DNA from: a virus
DNA: 64,000 nucleotides
Virus record (IMG/VR): IMGVR_UViG_3300038443_001768
Strand: one strand, 5' to 3'
Below the pieces are notes generated by a model. That model did no database searches. It saw nothing but the letters and a program-made list of their open reading frames with translations, and was not told the origin of the DNA. Numbering within the stretch: position 1 is the stretch's first letter; every line of letters begins with the position of its first letter. The position numbers were made by a program, and so were the translations under genes. Shown one piece after another: positions 47,745-62,674 of this stretch.

Positions 47745-47819
47745 TGGTAGCCCCACCGGGGATTGAACCCGGTCTAAGAGTGTGAAAGACTCTCGTGCTG
47801 ACCATTACACCATGGGGCC
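47745..47819 (-). tRNA. tRNA-Glu(UUC), with encoded CCA
   Basis: Cloverleaf; anticodon loop CTTTCAC. Confidence 0.9.
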
Positions 47820-47827
47820 GTGAAGGG

Positions 47828-47906
47828 TAGCGGAGGTAGGATTCGAACCGTTTATGACGACCTCCTGGTTATGAGCCAGGCGAGCTTCCAACTGCTCTAC
47901 TCCGCG
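47828..47906 (-). tRNA. Initiator-like tRNA-fMet(CAU) with 6-nt T-stem insertion
   Basis: CGCGGAG acceptor with C1:U72 mismatch; loop CTCATAA; T-stem 5' strand GTCATAAACGG. Confidence 0.8.
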
Positions 47907-47912
47907 TGATAG

Positions 47913-47985
47913 TAGGCCGTGCGGGATTCGAACCCGCGTTCTTCACTGTGAGAGAGTGACGAGATAACCGCTACTCCAACGGCCC
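47913..47985 (-). tRNA. tRNA-Glu(CUC)
   Basis: Cloverleaf; loop CTCTCAC. Confidence 0.9.
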
Positions 47986-48005
47986 AAGCTTTGACAAGTG
48001 TAGCA

Positions 48006-48078
48006 CGCCCCCGGCAGGATTCGAACCCGCGACCAGCCGGGTAGAAACCGGCCGCTCTGTCCACTGAGCTACAAGGGC
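48006..48078 (-). tRNA. tRNA-Arg(UCU)
   Basis: Cloverleaf; loop TTTCTAC. Confidence 0.92.
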
Positions 48079-48082
48079 AAGA

Positions 48083-48155
48083 TCGCGGCGAGGGGACTCG
48101 AACCCCATTCGGGCGCTCCTTATGAGGGAGTCCGGGTCAACCGATCCGCGCCGCA
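48083..48155 (-). tRNA. Atypical tRNA with CAU anticodon (Met or Ile2)
   Basis: Acceptor and T arm present; loop CTCATAA; reduced D arm. Confidence 0.7.
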
Positions 48156-48158
48156 TTA

Positions 48159-48230
48159 TGTCCCCGGCTGGATTCGAACCAGCGACCTACCGCTTAGGAG
48201 GCGGTCGCGCTTCCGCTGCGCCACGAGGAC
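48159..48230 (-). tRNA. tRNA-Arg(CCU)
   Basis: Cloverleaf; loop CTCCTAA. Confidence 0.9.
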
Positions 48231-48235
48231 TCAAG

Positions 48236-48306
48236 CGGGGCACCTGGGATTCGAACCCAGAAGGCGCGGTTTTGGAGACCGGCCGGCACAACCTACGCTG
48301 TACCCC
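48236..48306 (-). tRNA. Atypical tRNA-Trp(CCA)
   Basis: Loop CTCCAAA; canonical T arm; short D arm. Confidence 0.8.
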
Positions 48307-48311
48307 ATGTA

Positions 48312-48391
48312 CTGGCTGCTTACTTCCGGATCGTGGTCCGGTGTCGGCACTTAGCGGACTCTCCACGTCCACGACAGGAGAACACGGCCAA
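48312..48391 (-). ncRNA. Unknown structured RNA inside tRNA array 1
   Basis: Closing TGGC/GCCA, TGTCG/CGACA, hairpins GTGGAC-GTGGAGA-GTCCGC and CCGGA-CCACGA-TCCGG. Confidence 0.45.
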
Positions 48392-48396
48392 GTGAG

Positions 48397-48469
48397 GGTG
48401 ACCGATCAGATTCGAACTGACGCCGTCTTGGTTCACAACCAAGAGTGCTACCGCTACACCACGGTCACC
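48397..48469 (-). tRNA. tRNA-His(GUG)
   Basis: G-1:C73 pair; loop TTGTGAA. Confidence 0.92.
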
Positions 48470-48474
48470 GAGAG

Positions 48475-48547
48475 CGCCCTTGGCTGGACTCGAACCAGCG
48501 ACCCCCAGCTTCGCAAGCTGGTGCTCTATCCACTGAGCTACAAGGAC
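48475..48547 (-). tRNA. tRNA-Arg(GCG)
   Basis: Cloverleaf; loop TTGCGAA. Confidence 0.9.
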
Positions 48548-48553
48548 TTGGAG

Positions 48554-48627
48554 CGGAAGTGACGGGATTCGAACCCGCGGTCTCGTCCGTGACAGGGACG
48601 CGGGGACGGCCTCTCCCCTACACCTCC
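48554..48627 (-). tRNA. tRNA-Asp(GUC)
   Basis: Cloverleaf; loop CTGTCAC. Confidence 0.9.
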
Positions 48628-48639
48628 AAGTTACTTCAG

Positions 48640-48712
48640 CGTCCCTGGCAGGATTTGAACCCGCGACCCCCTGGTTCGAAGCCAGGTGCTCTATCCACTG
48701 AGCTACAGAGAC
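48640..48712 (-). tRNA. tRNA-Arg(UCG)
   Basis: Cloverleaf; loop CTTCGAA. Confidence 0.9.
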
Positions 48713-48716
48713 TAAG

Positions 48717-48801
48717 TGCGCGAGGTGGGACTCGAACCCACACGACCCTAAGGCCAACCGGGTTTGAGCCGGTCGTGTCTACCAATTCCTACCACTCACG
48801 C
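48717..48801 (-). tRNA. tRNA-Leu(CAA)
   Basis: Long variable arm; loop CTCAAAC. Confidence 0.9.
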
Positions 48802-48812
48802 GAAGACTGCTA

Positions 48813-48896
48813 TGACATCGAGGGGATTCGAACCCCTATGACCTCTCGGCCGGCAGGGTCTAAGCCTGCTGCGTATACCAATTCCACCACGATGCC
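48813..48896 (-). tRNA. tRNA-Leu(UAG)
   Basis: Long variable arm; loop CTTAGAC. Confidence 0.9.
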
Positions 48897-48900
48897 GGAG

Positions 48901-48984
48901 TGCGCTGAACAGGACTCGAACCTGCACGGGTTTTACCCCACAAGGCTCTCAACCTTGCGTGTCTACCAATTCCACCACCAACGC
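48901..48984 (-). tRNA. tRNA-Leu(GAG)
   Basis: Long variable arm; loop TTGAGAG. Confidence 0.9.
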
Positions 48985-48987
48985 GAA

Positions 48988-49108
48988 ATCCCATCAGAGG
49001 CCAGGGCGTCGATGGGAAGGACTACCTTGACCGCCCTCCGCCCAAGCGGCGAAGAATTCGCGTGCTGCCACACGCTTGCCCTCGGTGGCAGCCGAGGGGC
49101 GATCTCAG
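48988..49108 (-). ncRNA. Unknown ~120-nt structured RNA with kissing loops
   Basis: Adjacent hairpins with complementary loops CTGCCA and TGGCAG, plus two further hairpins and a possible pseudoknot. Confidence 0.6.
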
Positions 49109-49112
49109 TGAG

Positions 49113-49184
49113 TCGGGGACGCGGGAGTCGAACCCGCCACCACTCCGTTCCAAGCGGAGGATGCAACCGCTACACCTGACCCCG
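49113..49184 (-). tRNA. tRNA-Pro(UGG)
   Basis: Cloverleaf; loop CTTGGAA. Confidence 0.9.
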
Positions 49185-49187
49185 TAG

Positions 49188-49260
49188 TGGTCGATGCAGG
49201 TCTCGAACCTGCGACCTCATGCGTGTCGAGCATGCGCTCTACCAACTGAGCTAATCGACC
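49188..49260 (-). tRNA. tRNA-Val(GAC)
   Basis: Cloverleaf; loop TCGACAC (C33). Confidence 0.88.
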
Positions 49261-49274
49261 AAGGTACTACTAAG

Positions 49275-49347
49275 CTCCGCCGCCAGGATTCGAACCCGGA
49301 ACTCTCGGGTAACAACCGAGCACGTTCTCCGTTTACGCCACAGCGGA
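49275..49347 (-). tRNA. tRNA-Asn(GUU)
   Basis: Cloverleaf; loop TTGTTAC. Confidence 0.9.
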
Positions 49348-49352
49348 TCGTA

Positions 49353-49425
49353 TTGCAGGCCTAGGATTCGAACCCAGACTTCACGGCTTCAGAGGCCGGC
49401 GGGCTGCCAGTTACACCAGCCTGCA
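49353..49425 (-). tRNA. tRNA-Gln(CUG)
   Basis: U1-A72; loop CTCTGAA. Confidence 0.88.
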
Positions 49426-49429
49426 TTGA

Positions 49430-49501
49430 ATGCGGGACTCGGGTTCGAACCGAGCCGATGAGCTTCAAAGGCTCACGTGCTGCCAGCTACACCATCCCGC
49501 A
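49430..49501 (-). tRNA. tRNA-Gln(UUG)
   Basis: U1-A72; loop CTTTGAA. Confidence 0.88.
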
Positions 49502-49539: not shown

Positions 49540-49970
49540 CGTGGGCCGGACAGCGATGAACGCCGCCCGGCCCACTACCCGGAGAACCATGACCACCAAC
49601 TGCTCCTGTCGCGAAACCTGCGTGCGACAAGCCTGCACTGCCGGACCGGAGAGGAGCGCCGACGACCTAGCGCTCAACTCTCCGGCCCATAAGCCCTTTC
49701 GGGGAGAGGAGGGACTCCACCCTCAACGTCACGACCCGGCGTGGGCAGCCGTTCGGTGATAGCCAATACCACCCAGGTCGATCCGTGCTCATCGACGGGC
49801 CGCCAAGCCCAACACATCGCTGACTCGGAGTGGCTGCTCCTGTCCACCGCTACGACTCCCAGGCTGATGACCCTGTCGTGCAGCTTTTCCCGACGCTTCG
49901 ATGACACTTTAGCCGCGTGCTGCTACGGCTTGTTCGGTCACTCTCTGCCGCACTGGCCGGTGCGGCGTTG
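49540..49970 (-). ncRNA. Candidate large (~430 nt) structured ncRNA
   Basis: Continuous GC-rich hairpins, no convincing ORF, upstream TTGACA/extended -10 promoter (49976-50006), strong 3' hairpin. Confidence 0.55.
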
Positions 49971-50768: not shown

Positions 50769-52190
50769 ATGACCAACGTACGCGCGGCGGACGCCCTGAT
50801 GGCGGATATCTTCGGAAAGGACGCGTATCGCGTCGGCGGCAGCGTGCGTGACGAAGTTCTCGGCCGCCACATCAAGGACGCCGACTATGTCGTTCAGCAC
50901 CACACGCTGGACGCGATCAAGCGAAAGCTTCGTCGCGGCTTCGAGCATCGCGGTCAGGTCGCGATCACGAAGCTCGAACTCCGTACCGGACAACACGCCG
51001 GATGGCGCGTCGGCGCGCCTTGGAACATCGAGATCATGATGCCGCGAGGCGAGCAGAAGGTCGAGACCGACGAGGGTAACGAGCGGCACAAGTTCATCAT
51101 CACGCTCGACCCCGACATGCCTCTGGAGGTCGACGCTCTGCGGCGCGACTTCACAATGAACGCCCTGTATCGAAACGTCGTCACCGGAGAGATTGACGAC
51201 CCTCTGGGCGGCGTCGCGGCGATCGAGGACGGTGAGGTCACGACGACGGATGCGTCGTCGTTCCGCGACGACCCTCTGCGCACGCTGCGCGCTCTGCGCT
51301 TCGTGTCGCAACTTGGCTTCGATCTCGACGACGACACGTATGGACAGATGTTCGTGCACGCGAAGTCTGTCGATGGGCTCACCGACAAGGGTGTCTCTGG
51401 AACTGCGTTCGACGAACTCTGCAAGATCCTGATGGGCCGACACGTCGCGAAGGCGCTGCGGCTCGCGAGGGATTCACGGGTTCTGGAGTCGCTGCTGCCG
51501 GAGCTTGCTCCGATGCTGGGTCACGACCCGCAGAACTCGCACCATGCGTTCTCAACCGACGAGCACACCTTCGTCGCCCTCGACGTTGCGGCCGGCTTCG
51601 GGCTGCCGCTGAGGGTGCGTCTCGCGCTGCTCTTCCACGACGCGGGCAAGCCGCTCGTCGAGTGGGTCGGAAAGGACGGCATGAAGCACTACTTCGAATC
51701 CAAGGATCAGCCAGGATCGATCGATCACCAGGAGGCGTCGGCGGAGTTGTGGCTCGCCGTCGCGGACCGCCTGAACGTACCGCGTTCACTGCGGCGCGAT
51801 GTCGAGACGTTGATCCGGCGTCACATGGTACCGCTGACGCTACGTCTGAAGCCGGCGAAGGTCCGCAAGTGGCGATGCGAGCTTGGCGACGACCTGCTCG
51901 CAGACCTGCTGCGGCACCGGCTCTGCGATGTCATGGCCAAGGGCGTCATCGACTACGAGGCCATGCGCGCAGTGAATCGCATGGAGGAGATCCGCGAGGA
52001 CGCCGTCCGCGACGGGGTGCCTGTGACGGTTCGCGACCTCCCCGTCTCGGGCGGAGACATCGCCGCTATGGGCGTCAGCGGCCCTCGGATCGGTGAGATT
52101 CAGCGGCAGCTTCTCCACGAGGCGGTTTCGCAGCCCTCCAACAACACACGAGACCGCATGTACATGCGGGCGCTGAAGCTGGCTGCGTGA
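50769..52190 (+). CDS. cca: CCA-adding tRNA nucleotidyltransferase with HD domain
   Basis: YRVGGSVRDEVLG..IKDADY, DALRRDFTMNAL, FRDDPLRTLRALRF, Q..HH....EHT, LFHDAGKP; leaderless ATG after TTGCAG-17-TACGCT. Confidence 0.93.
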   Translation: MTNVRAADALMADIFGKDAYRVGGSVRDEVLGRHIKDADYVVQHHTLDAIKRKLRRGFEHRGQVAITKLELRTGQHAGWRVGAPWNIEIMMPRGEQKVETDEGNERHKFIITLDPDMPLEVDALRRDFTMNALYRNVVTGEIDDPLGGVAAIEDGEVTTTDASSFRDDPLRTLRALRFVSQLGFDLDDDTYGQMFVHAKSVDGLTDKGVSGTAFDELCKILMGRHVAKALRLARDSRVLESLLPELAPMLGHDPQNSHHAFSTDEHTFVALDVAAGFGLPLRVRLALLFHDAGKPLVEWVGKDGMKHYFESKDQPGSIDHQEASAELWLAVADRLNVPRSLRRDVETLIRRHMVPLTLRLKPAKVRKWRCELGDDLLADLLRHRLCDVMAKGVIDYEAMRAVNRMEEIREDAVRDGVPVTVRDLPVSGGDIAAMGVSGPRIGEIQRQLLHEAVSQPSNNTRDRMYMRALKLAA

Positions 52191-52597
52191 CCACCGAGCT
52201 TCTTAGCGGCGACAGGTCTGCTGTTGAGGAGGCGGCGCGGAACATAGAACAAGCCGCGCGCAACCGTTTCGATGCTGGACATGTCTACATGCTTGAGTCG
52301 TCATCAGACAGAGCATATAAAGTCGGATACTCGGTCTCACCGATTGACAGACTCTACGCAATACGCAAGCAGGCCAACGATAAGTCAATCTCCTATGTGG
52401 GCTCGATTAGGGGGGCTCTTCGTCTCGACGAATATGCGATCCACCGAGAACTTGACGAGCTTGGATTGCGCTGGAGCGGCCGCTATTTAGGCACGTTCGA
52501 GTGGTTTCATGCGACGGCGGAGCTTGATGTTTTGGCTGACGTGCTTCGCGGTCTGTCCATCGAACGTAGAAACGCGCGAGGCTTCAGCTACTCTTGA
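52187..52597 (+). CDS. GIY-YIG-like (T5orf172/Mug113) nuclease domain protein
   Basis: GHVYML...YKVGYS..P.DRL, E..IH..L, EWF motifs. Confidence 0.75.
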   Translation: MTTELLSGDRSAVEEAARNIEQAARNRFDAGHVYMLESSSDRAYKVGYSVSPIDRLYAIRKQANDKSISYVGSIRGALRLDEYAIHRELDELGLRWSGRYLGTFEWFHATAELDVLADVLRGLSIERRNARGFSYS

Positions 52598-55614: not shown

Positions 55615-55636
55615 ACTGTAGCAGATCTACGCGACA
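55615..55636 (-). promoter_or_regulatory. Promoter of tRNA array 2
   Basis: TGTCG-N8-TGCTACAGT. Confidence 0.6.
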
Positions 55637-56157
55637 AGCGAGCAGACGCCTGTGTCTGGCTCTACGACCTCGATCTCAAAGGTGTTCAGATGCGGAGTCG
55701 CGCGAGCCTCTGCCTCCTCGCGGGCCACGCGCGCCGCTACCTGCTCGGCCGTCTCAGGAATCGGCCAGTTGCCGTTCTCGTCCTTGAGAGCGGTTAGGTC
55801 TTCGCCCAACTGCTCCAACATGAAGAACAATAGCGGTGTATGCGCCTTCTTCTGATTGCAGTCGAAACATGAGCCTGATCGATTTGTCCACGAGCCCTTT
55901 GATCCACCTAGCGCCTTCGGCTGGACGTGGTCAACGGTAGTTCCGCGCAGGCACGCGCAGTATGCACATGGGTCGCGACGGATGATGTGGTCCCAAACGG
56001 CGCGAGATGCGTGCGGCCGGCGCAGTAGGCCGCCAAGACGCGCTCCGGATGGGACGCGAGCGTGGATTAGCTCGTCACCGCACGCAGGGCAAGACTTACC
56101 GCGGAGTTCCGCAGTGAAGCCGGCCTTGCACGAGGAGCACCAGATTAGCTGTGCCAC
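55627..56157 (-). CDS. HNH endonuclease
   Basis: RRDPCAYC...TVDHVQPKALGG...N....CFDCNQKK, plus N-terminal Zn ribbon. Confidence 0.85.
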   Translation of the reverse strand: MAQLIWCSSCKAGFTAELRGKSCPACGDELIHARVPSGARLGGLLRRPHASRAVWDHIIRRDPCAYCACLRGTTVDHVQPKALGGSKGSWTNRSGSCFDCNQKKAHTPLLFFMLEQLGEDLTALKDENGNWPIPETAEQVAARVAREEAEARATPHLNTFEIEVVEPDTGVCSLVA

Positions 56158-62313: not shown

Positions 62314-62388
62314 GAGCCCCGGGCTCGCACCGGGAACCATCAGGCTCGTAGTACCTGACCTTTGGACGCCCTTGGCGTCGGTGCATTG
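62314..62388 (-). ncRNA. tRNA-sized structured element / degenerate tRNA
   Basis: GACGCC/GGCGTC, TCAGG/CCTGA and CCCGG-TGCGAGC-CCGGG hairpins; no canonical acceptor stem. Confidence 0.4.
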
Positions 62389-62390
62389 AG

Positions 62391-62538: not shown

Positions 62539-62673
62539 GAACAGGCCGGCGCTCTACCGTTGAGCTACAAGCGGGCGAACCATCAAGGAGCGACCTCGAA
62601 GTAATCCGACTCGACGTGCACGTCGAGAAGGGTTGCCGCCAGGGCGGATTCGAACCACCAACCTCCGGCCGTA
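62539..62673 (-). ncRNA. Circularly permuted tRNA(Asn)-like RNA / YrlA-like tRNA mimic
   Basis: On the - strand the tRNA 3' half (GCCGG-AGGTT-GGTGG TTCGAAT CCGCC-CTGGCGG; 62672-62635) precedes the 5' half (CCGCTTG-TA-GCTC AACGGTA GAGC-G-CCGGC-CT-GTT; 62574-62540), joined by a 60-nt linker. Confidence 0.8.
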
Positions 62674-62674
62674 A

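Follow-up and report, generated by a model that had tools for sequence, protein, structure and literature searches.

A candidate family of small four-way-junction RNAs with complementary hexaloops, encoded between phage tRNA genes

The tRNA clusters of phages have long been known for non-tRNA RNAs of unknown role, such as T4 RNAC and RNAD, ROOL, GOLLD and manA. T4 RNAC and RNAD, also called species 1 and 2, are small non-tRNA RNAs that come from the phage tRNA gene cluster and whose role is unknown (PMC3014915). By position and likely biogenesis they are the nearest precedent for the element described here, which fits the same type, a non-tRNA RNA inside a phage tRNA cluster and on the tRNA strand. 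They belong to another phage lineage and host and have no known structure in common with the element, and the likeness is one of position, not of direct comparison. In the phi29-family pRNA, the CE and D loops of one molecule are complementary and pair between molecules to give multimers, and two intermolecular G-C pairs of these interlocking loops have been detected by NMR (PMC5066667). The element also carries two complementary loops on one RNA, here with all six positions matching and conserved in three members, although this likeness is at the level of sequence. pRNA has a three-way junction, is bound to the packaging motor and is encoded outside a tRNA operon, whereas the element is a four-way junction, and a comparison of the element with the pRNA model of Rfam gave no match at E ≤ 10. 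ROOL and GOLLD are phage and prophage RNAs, often located near tRNA islands, that form RNA-only multimers by means of kissing loops (PMC12286853). However, they measure 500 to more than 800 nt and contain dozens of helices, compared to 76-98 nt and four helices for the core of the element, which does not match their Rfam models. The phage-associated structured RNA manA (RF01745) has a counterpart in the same operon, a manA-like element about 600 nt upstream, but the two are distinct, and the spacer that holds the element has no manA match. A functional RNA from a bacterial tRNA-precursor spacer, the 3'ETS-leuZ sponge, was reportedly described by Lalaouna and colleagues in 2015. The element would resemble it as a by-product of tRNA-operon processing with a function of its own, but RNAs of the 3'ETS-leuZ type act by linear base-pairing with Hfq-dependent sRNAs and have neither a covarying multi-helix fold nor invariant hairpin loops. 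The element belongs to none of the T4 RNAC/RNAD, pRNA and ROOL/GOLLD families. What is new is a very small family within a known kind, the structured non-tRNA RNAs of phage tRNA clusters.

The element was found in a stretch of 64,000 nt (hereafter the window) from a large, uncultured phage with a G+C content of about 61%. Among its genes are those for a portal-MuF fusion, ThyX and a CCA-adding enzyme, the last of which is 1.2 kb from the element, and ARAGORN detected 36 tRNAs, arranged in three minus-strand arrays. Searches with the CCA enzyme, the portal and a 1,021-aa protein, and blastn against phage records, did not reveal a close cultured phage, and the relatives of the CCA enzyme in Logan are 53-66% identical. 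The spacers between the tRNAs of these arrays are mostly 2-19 nt long. A gap of 127 nt separates tRNA-Pro(UGG) (49112-49184) from tRNA-Leu(GAG) (48900-48984) on the minus strand, and this gap holds the element. When the array region was compared with 50,697 phage records by blastn, the best 30 rows were tRNAs only and none lay over the spacer. An Rfam search, proposed in the preliminary description of this DNA, found no family for the spacer, either at the gathering threshold or at E ≤ 10.

The minimum free energy (MFE) fold of the spacer is a four-way junction with an additional 3' hairpin (-59.4 kcal/mol, z = -2.2). The core of the junction (49029-49104, minus strand) is tRNA-sized and begins 7 nt past tRNA-Pro(UGG). 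It is 76 nt long in the window, and 98 nt and 82 nt long in two related phages, L002 and L134, which are introduced below. The parts of the spacer, in the direction of transcription of the tRNAs, are as follows.

49105-49111, minus strand: 7-nt trailer UCACUGA between tRNA-Pro(UGG) and the element; identical in L002, 7-8 nt in L134
49098-49104, minus strand: 5' strand of the closing stem P1, GAUCGCC, pairing with 49029-49035 in the MFE fold
49080-49097 as 6 bp or 49079-49098 as 7 bp, minus strand: hairpin 1, stem CCCUCGG/CCGAGGG, with loop L1, CUGCCA, at 49086-49091
49076-49079, minus strand: linker J12, GCAA; lengthened to 7 nt (L002) and 8 nt (L134), in each case A-rich and beginning with GC
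49060-49075, minus strand: hairpin 2, 5-bp stem GCGUG/CACGC, with loop L2, UGGCAG, at 49065-49070, the exact complement of L1
49055-49059, minus strand: linker J23, GAAUU
49036-49054, minus strand: hairpin 3, stem CUUCGCC/GGCGGAG with loop GCUUG; variable in length and sequence among the members, always canonical
49029-49035, minus strand: 3' strand of P1, GGCGGUC, directly after hairpin 3 without a linker
48985-49028, minus strand: 3' appendix, consisting of a 12-nt linker, a hairpin, and UUUC abutting tRNA-Leu(GAG)
48989-49016, minus strand: hairpin of the appendix, stem UCCCAUC/GAUGGGA with the 15-nt loop GACGCCCUGGCCUCU, 4 nt ahead of tRNA-Leu(GAG)

The preliminary description had reported hairpins 1, 2 and 3 and the 3' hairpin on the minus strand, and all four are present as described, with the hexaloops CUGCCA and UGGCAG as exact Watson-Crick complements. 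The linker between hairpins 1 and 2 had been given as AA and has to be corrected to CAA, or GCAA when hairpin 1 is counted as 6 bp. The 7-bp closing stem GAUCGCC/GGCGGUC, which makes a four-way junction of hairpins 1-3, had been overlooked. A second pseudoknot had also been put forward, between AGGGCG and CGCCCU. Both hexamers are indeed in the spacer, but their pairing would draw on P1, which covaries, for four nucleotides and on hairpin 3 for two, the partner hairpin is missing in L134, and in L002 one compensatory change is gained and one pair is lost, so that this proposal was abandoned. The 3' appendix is about 96% identical in L002, where the stem of its hairpin is unchanged and the loop has two changes. 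Its hairpin is missing in L134, which has a tRNA-Pro(CGG) at the corresponding place, and the appendix, found in the window and L002 only, lies outside the conserved core. An extension of P1 by ACU/AGU, which can be drawn for the window, is broken in L002 and was rejected.

L002 is an IMG/VR contig from an uncultured phage with a CCA enzyme that is 91% identical to that of the window, and L134 is an uncultured phage that was found by way of its portal gene (66% identical portal). In both, the array is syntenic, tRNA-Pro(UGG) is immediately followed by an oversized gap, and the element is located in this gap. The spacer of L002 is just 62% identical to that of the window, compared to 98-100% for most tRNAs, while the 7-nt trailer, both strands of P1 and both hexaloops are unchanged. 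The differences do not fall at random: the stem of hairpin 1 differs by three compensating double changes, that of hairpin 2 has a wholly different sequence with the pairing retained, and hairpin 3 is enlarged. In L134 the gap measures 101 nt, and its junction combines the same loops, CUGCCA and UGGCAG, with stems that differ again from those of the window and L002; hairpin 3 has 8 bp. P1 reads AGUCGCU/GGCGGCU in this phage, which amounts to two compensatory swaps (GA...UC to AG...CU) with the U·G pair kept. The folding z-scores of L002 and L134 are -2.8 and -3.2, respectively, and none of 200 shuffles of the L134 gap folded as well. MAFFT misaligned the diverged stems, and the comparison was based on a structure-guided alignment of the three members that was built by script. 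Its positions are distributed as follows.

P1, 7 positions: double compensatory changes at 2
Hairpin 1, 6 positions: double compensatory changes at 5
Hairpin 2, 5 positions: double compensatory changes at 5
Hairpin 3, 6-8 positions: double compensatory changes at 6
Loops L1 and L2, 6 pair positions: no changes, 12/12 nucleotides invariant

Altogether, double compensatory changes occur at 18 positions, and all pairs of P1 and the three hairpins are canonical in 3/3 members, with arm lengths of 6-7, 4-5 and 6-8 bp. With compensatory changes in each of its helices in two homologues, the element is a selected, structured RNA and not an inert spacer, in agreement with the functional RNA that had been suggested in the preliminary description. 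Judged by their sequences, the elements of the window, L002 and L134 are the three known members of a genuine RNA family that is absent from Rfam. The complementarity of the loops, which might have been lost in homologues, is kept in both L002 and L134. An alignment of homologues had also been proposed as a way to look for loop-loop covariation; here the outcome was mixed, with the complementarity kept and the loops invariant, without covariation.

The RNA is read from the tRNA strand, because the G·U pairs and the folding energies favour the sense orientation. RNAalifold recovers the junction with -46.8 in the sense compared to -37.7 in the antisense direction, each of the three cores is more stable in tRNA sense than in antisense, G·U pairs form on the tRNA strand only, and L134 folds only on that strand. 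These data bear on the idea that selection acts on the DNA, where a dimeric protein, for instance a recombinase or one of the homing endonucleases encoded between the arrays, would bind or cleave at the inverted repeat CTGCCA...TGGCAG. The motif is identical when read on either strand, genes for T5orf172-like and HNH endonucleases are located nearby, the array around the element is a mosaic, and the assemblies of two relatives break inside the array, all of which would suit such a site. However, the spacing of the half-sites varies (15, 18 and 17 nt), the stems flanking each hexamer covary, which a site in duplex DNA would not need, and the fold is canonical on the tRNA strand only, so that we consider a DNA-level signal highly improbable.

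Two adjacent hairpins with complementary hexaloops might also arise by chance. In 3.1 Mb of phage DNA, both strands included, we counted 5,394 pairs of adjacent hexaloop hairpins, of which 8 were complementary and 4 were the element itself. Roughly 0.05-0.1 adjacent pairs with complementary hexaloops are expected per 64-kb window, and a single pair is only mildly unusual. Chance is nevertheless excluded, because the same loops recur on different, compensating stems at syntenic positions in two other phages. A scan of the complete IMG/VR for the pattern of loops and P1 core gave 42 matches, and the stems were present only in the L002 and L134 contigs, in which 7/5 bp and 6/4 bp flank the hexamers, compared to 0-3 bp in the other 40. 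In GTDB genomes the same pattern matched at least 120 times, with stems in none of the matches listed. Thus, at least 160 sequence look-alikes without stems were found among the matches listed for IMG/VR and GTDB. In a metagenome scan that used both strands of P1 as anchors, the 43 matches were chance hits in coding DNA, with zero homologues among them, and a looser, loop-anchored scan of IMG/VR gave chance matches among the matches listed. A portal search of GTDB found nothing, a scan of IMG/VR by alignment of the CCA enzyme led to 80 mostly distant phages without a further element, and the contigs of L001, L132, L135, L136 and L137 do not include the region of the element. Also, no analogue with other loop sequences was present among 38 long inter-tRNA gaps.

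In several respects the element looks like a tRNA gene. It is tRNA-sized, it is spaced in the array as a tRNA gene would be, and it shares with tRNA the four-way junction, a 7-bp closing stem in 3/3 members and a 3' strand that follows directly after the third arm. In contrast to tRNA, it contains no D-loop or T-loop motifs, its loops have 6 instead of 7 nt and its third loop is variable, the first arm is 6-7 bp long and adjoins P1 directly (0 nt), and arms 1 and 2 are 4-8 nt apart. Neither ARAGORN (48985-49111) nor the tRNA model of Rfam (RF00005, E ≤ 10) detected it. The trailer has a length that is typical for the inter-tRNA spacers of the array, and the spacer contains no promoter- or terminator-like site, the only such sites being those that follow the last tRNA of the array. 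Because of this lack of an internal promoter or terminator and the tRNA-like spacing, the release by processing of the flanking tRNAs that was assumed in the preliminary description is a reasonable inference.

The tRNA-like position also raises the question whether the element is a structured spacer or processing element and nothing else, either a leader that guides or blocks nucleases at tRNA-Pro and tRNA-Leu, or a decaying former tRNA. It occupies a tRNA slot, with 7-8 nt to the preceding tRNA and, in the case of L134, 10-11 nt to the following one, its 7-bp closing stem resembles an acceptor stem, and other spacers in these arrays are structured too. On the other hand, a decaying gene would not hold four canonical helices through 18 compensatory positions together with 12 invariant loop nucleotides, and spacers of 2-19 nt suffice for the maturation of most tRNAs in these arrays, which need no such element. 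A role as spacer only therefore seems improbable to us.

Our working model, which we prefer with due hesitation, is a small structured RNA gene in a tRNA slot, the product of which is co-transcribed with the tRNAs, excised, and paired between copies through its hexaloops. The RNA would be transcribed together with the tRNAs of the polycistronic operon and excised by the maturation enzymes of the adjacent tRNAs. RNase P would act at the 5' terminus of the following tRNA, and processing behind tRNA-Pro would fall to RNase Z, RNase E or exonucleases. Hairpins 1 and 2 would then display CUGCCA and UGGCAG as active surfaces, and L1 of one copy could pair with L2 of another to give closed symmetric dimers, short chains or rings, in the manner of the loops of phi29 pRNA and the kissing loops of ROOL and GOLLD. 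A downstream role might be that of a nuclease-resistant particle, or of a scaffold or decoy in tRNA supply and repair. The more specific version, in which a tRNA-sized RNA is made in bulk and self-assembles through its hexaloops into dimers or closed rings, and in which the resulting particle, as a decoy or scaffold, acts on the tRNAs or the translation machinery of the host or the phage, is more speculative, and we rate it as rather unlikely. Of the two activities mentioned in the preliminary description, nothing speaks for ribosome binding, and only steric grounds favour multimerisation.

These steric grounds concern the linkers. The TAR-TAR* hexaloop kiss pairs each of the six bases of a loop and stacks the three helices coaxially, and in A-form geometry a base pair adds about 2.8 Å, while a linker nucleotide spans at most about 6-7 Å. 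A coaxial kiss would accordingly separate the base of hairpin 1 from that of hairpin 2 by some 45-50 Å, a distance that the 3-4-nt linker of the window should not be able to span and the 7-8-nt linker of L134 only barely. Pairing between copies is favoured, because the junction linkers of 3-8 nt are too short for an intramolecular coaxial kiss of 6 bp. The calculated free energy of the L1:L2 duplex is -8.4 kcal/mol. Nevertheless, that the loops pair is plausible but not proven, since loops without any variation offer no covariation to demonstrate it. In addition, the model comes from three members only, the linkers of L134 might just permit an intramolecular kiss, and no function follows from oligomerisation as such.

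A nested fold, in which L1 and L2 form a continuous helix within one molecule, is predicted to lie within 0-1.1 kcal/mol of the two-hairpin fold with free loops in all three members, and in this nearly iso-energetic helix an intramolecular alternative exists. The loops could make a partial side-by-side contact that shapes the junction, an 'elbow' comparable to the contact between the D- and T-loops of tRNA, or the RNA could be a two-state switch that converts to the long L1:L2 helix. Four-way junctions can set adjacent arms side by side, as in the hairpin ribozyme. Furthermore, the closing pairs of hairpins 1 and 2 shift together, from G-C/G-C in the window to A-U/A-U in L002, and this joint change would extend the L1:L2 helix to 8 bp. 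However, the closing pairs of L134, U-A and G-C, break the 8-bp extension, the short linker of the window seems incompatible with a full 6-bp kiss within one molecule, a switch has no evident trigger or output, and there is strong selection for pairing in the two hairpin stems themselves. We regard an intramolecular role of the loops as unlikely.

Pairing between copies leaves one observation to be accounted for. The loops are invariant while 10/11 of the stem pairs of hairpins 1 and 2 vary, which suggests a constraint beyond mutual pairing and points to an external partner or an exact tertiary motif. The loops might dock a partner of fixed sequence or shape, a protein or an RNA such as tRNA, with their mutual complementarity being secondary. 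Recognition by a third party would be expected to keep 12/12 loop nucleotides invariant on drifting stems, whereas mutual pairing does not require this, and tRNA elbows, with invariant loops on covarying stems, are a precedent. One variant would combine a mimic of an anticodon loop with a matching codon: L1, written C-U-GCC-A, has the Y32-U33-NNN-R37 form of tRNA-Gly(GCC), and L2, as U-GGC-A-G, carries the codon GGC, a weak lead. The anticodon loop of the phage tRNA-Gly(GCC), UUGCCAU, matches L1 at 5/6 positions, which is again a weak lead. On the other side, any hexamer holds four triplets, so that codon and anticodon readings come cheap, and the loops have 6 nt, not 7. The three phages yielded neither a conserved partner hairpin nor a neighbouring gene for an RNA-binding protein, and in the search for a partner in trans UGGCAG was displayed only by the D-loops of tRNA-Gln, likewise a weak lead. 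Finally, recognition by a third party leaves the exact 6/6 complementarity as a coincidence of about 1 in 4,096. An external partner is in our view somewhat unlikely.

Should the element indeed assemble by pairing between copies, it would be a miniature, tRNA-slot-encoded counterpart of the pRNA or ROOL/GOLLD assemblies. With about 80 nt it is simple enough for a direct test of self-association by kissing loops. More generally, a 'spacer' in a phage tRNA array can be a gene under strong selection for structure, and such spacer genes are missed by both tRNA finders and Rfam. The phage clade packs several such RNAs around genes for tRNA supply and repair.

Several other features of these arrays were noted. 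The manA-like RNA (RF01745) is located at 49699-49965 on the minus strand, at the head of tRNA array 1, and contains large insertions; the match scores 35.9 bits, which is under the gathering score of 55.2, with E = 1e-7. Inside a 165-nt gap (48231-48395) we found a sub-threshold tRNA at 48236-48306 on the minus strand (25.6 bits in Rfam versus a gathering score of 29, E = 0.0015). Its anticodon loop is CUCCAAA (Trp, CCA), its T-arm is perfect and its D-arm is aberrant. It was missed by ARAGORN, and none of the 36 tRNAs that were detected is for Trp. L002 shares the complete gap at 99% identity, together with about 90 nt ahead of the Trp-like tRNA for which there is no explanation. Between two tRNA-Thr genes, a 136-nt gap (62539-62674, minus strand) starts with a 3' half resembling a T-arm and acceptor and ends with a 5' half resembling an acceptor and D-arm, and it is 96% conserved in L001 and L002. 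The 76-nt gap from tRNA-Gly(TCC) to tRNA-Phe (62314-62389, minus strand) contains three hairpins, the middle one of which covaries (UCAGG/CCUGA in the window versus UCAUG/CAUGA in L001 and L002).

A comparison of the window (47745-49501) with L002 (7174-8961) shows that the array is a cassette-like mosaic, in which most tRNAs are 98-100% identical, whereas those for Pro (65%), Asp (75%), His (56%) and Glu-UUC (60%) have been replaced or have diverged strongly. The assemblies of two relatives, one represented by the contigs of L001 and L133 and the other by that of L132, break within this array. Between the tRNA arrays there are two genes with endonuclease domains, T5orf172 (GIY-YIG-like) at 52187-52597 on the plus strand and HNH at 55627-56157 on the minus strand. 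Homing endonucleases drive the mosaicism of tRNA cassettes in T4-type tRNA regions, and these two genes are possible drivers here. Lastly, a structured gap of 163-165 nt between tRNA-Gln and tRNA-Met was observed in three unrelated phage contigs that were reached via their CCA-enzyme gene (L021, 1126-1288; L029, 2256-2420; L038, 787-950; plus strand). The predicted loops, CUAUAA and UUAUU, are similar in the three gaps, which may contain another RNA that is embedded in a tRNA array.
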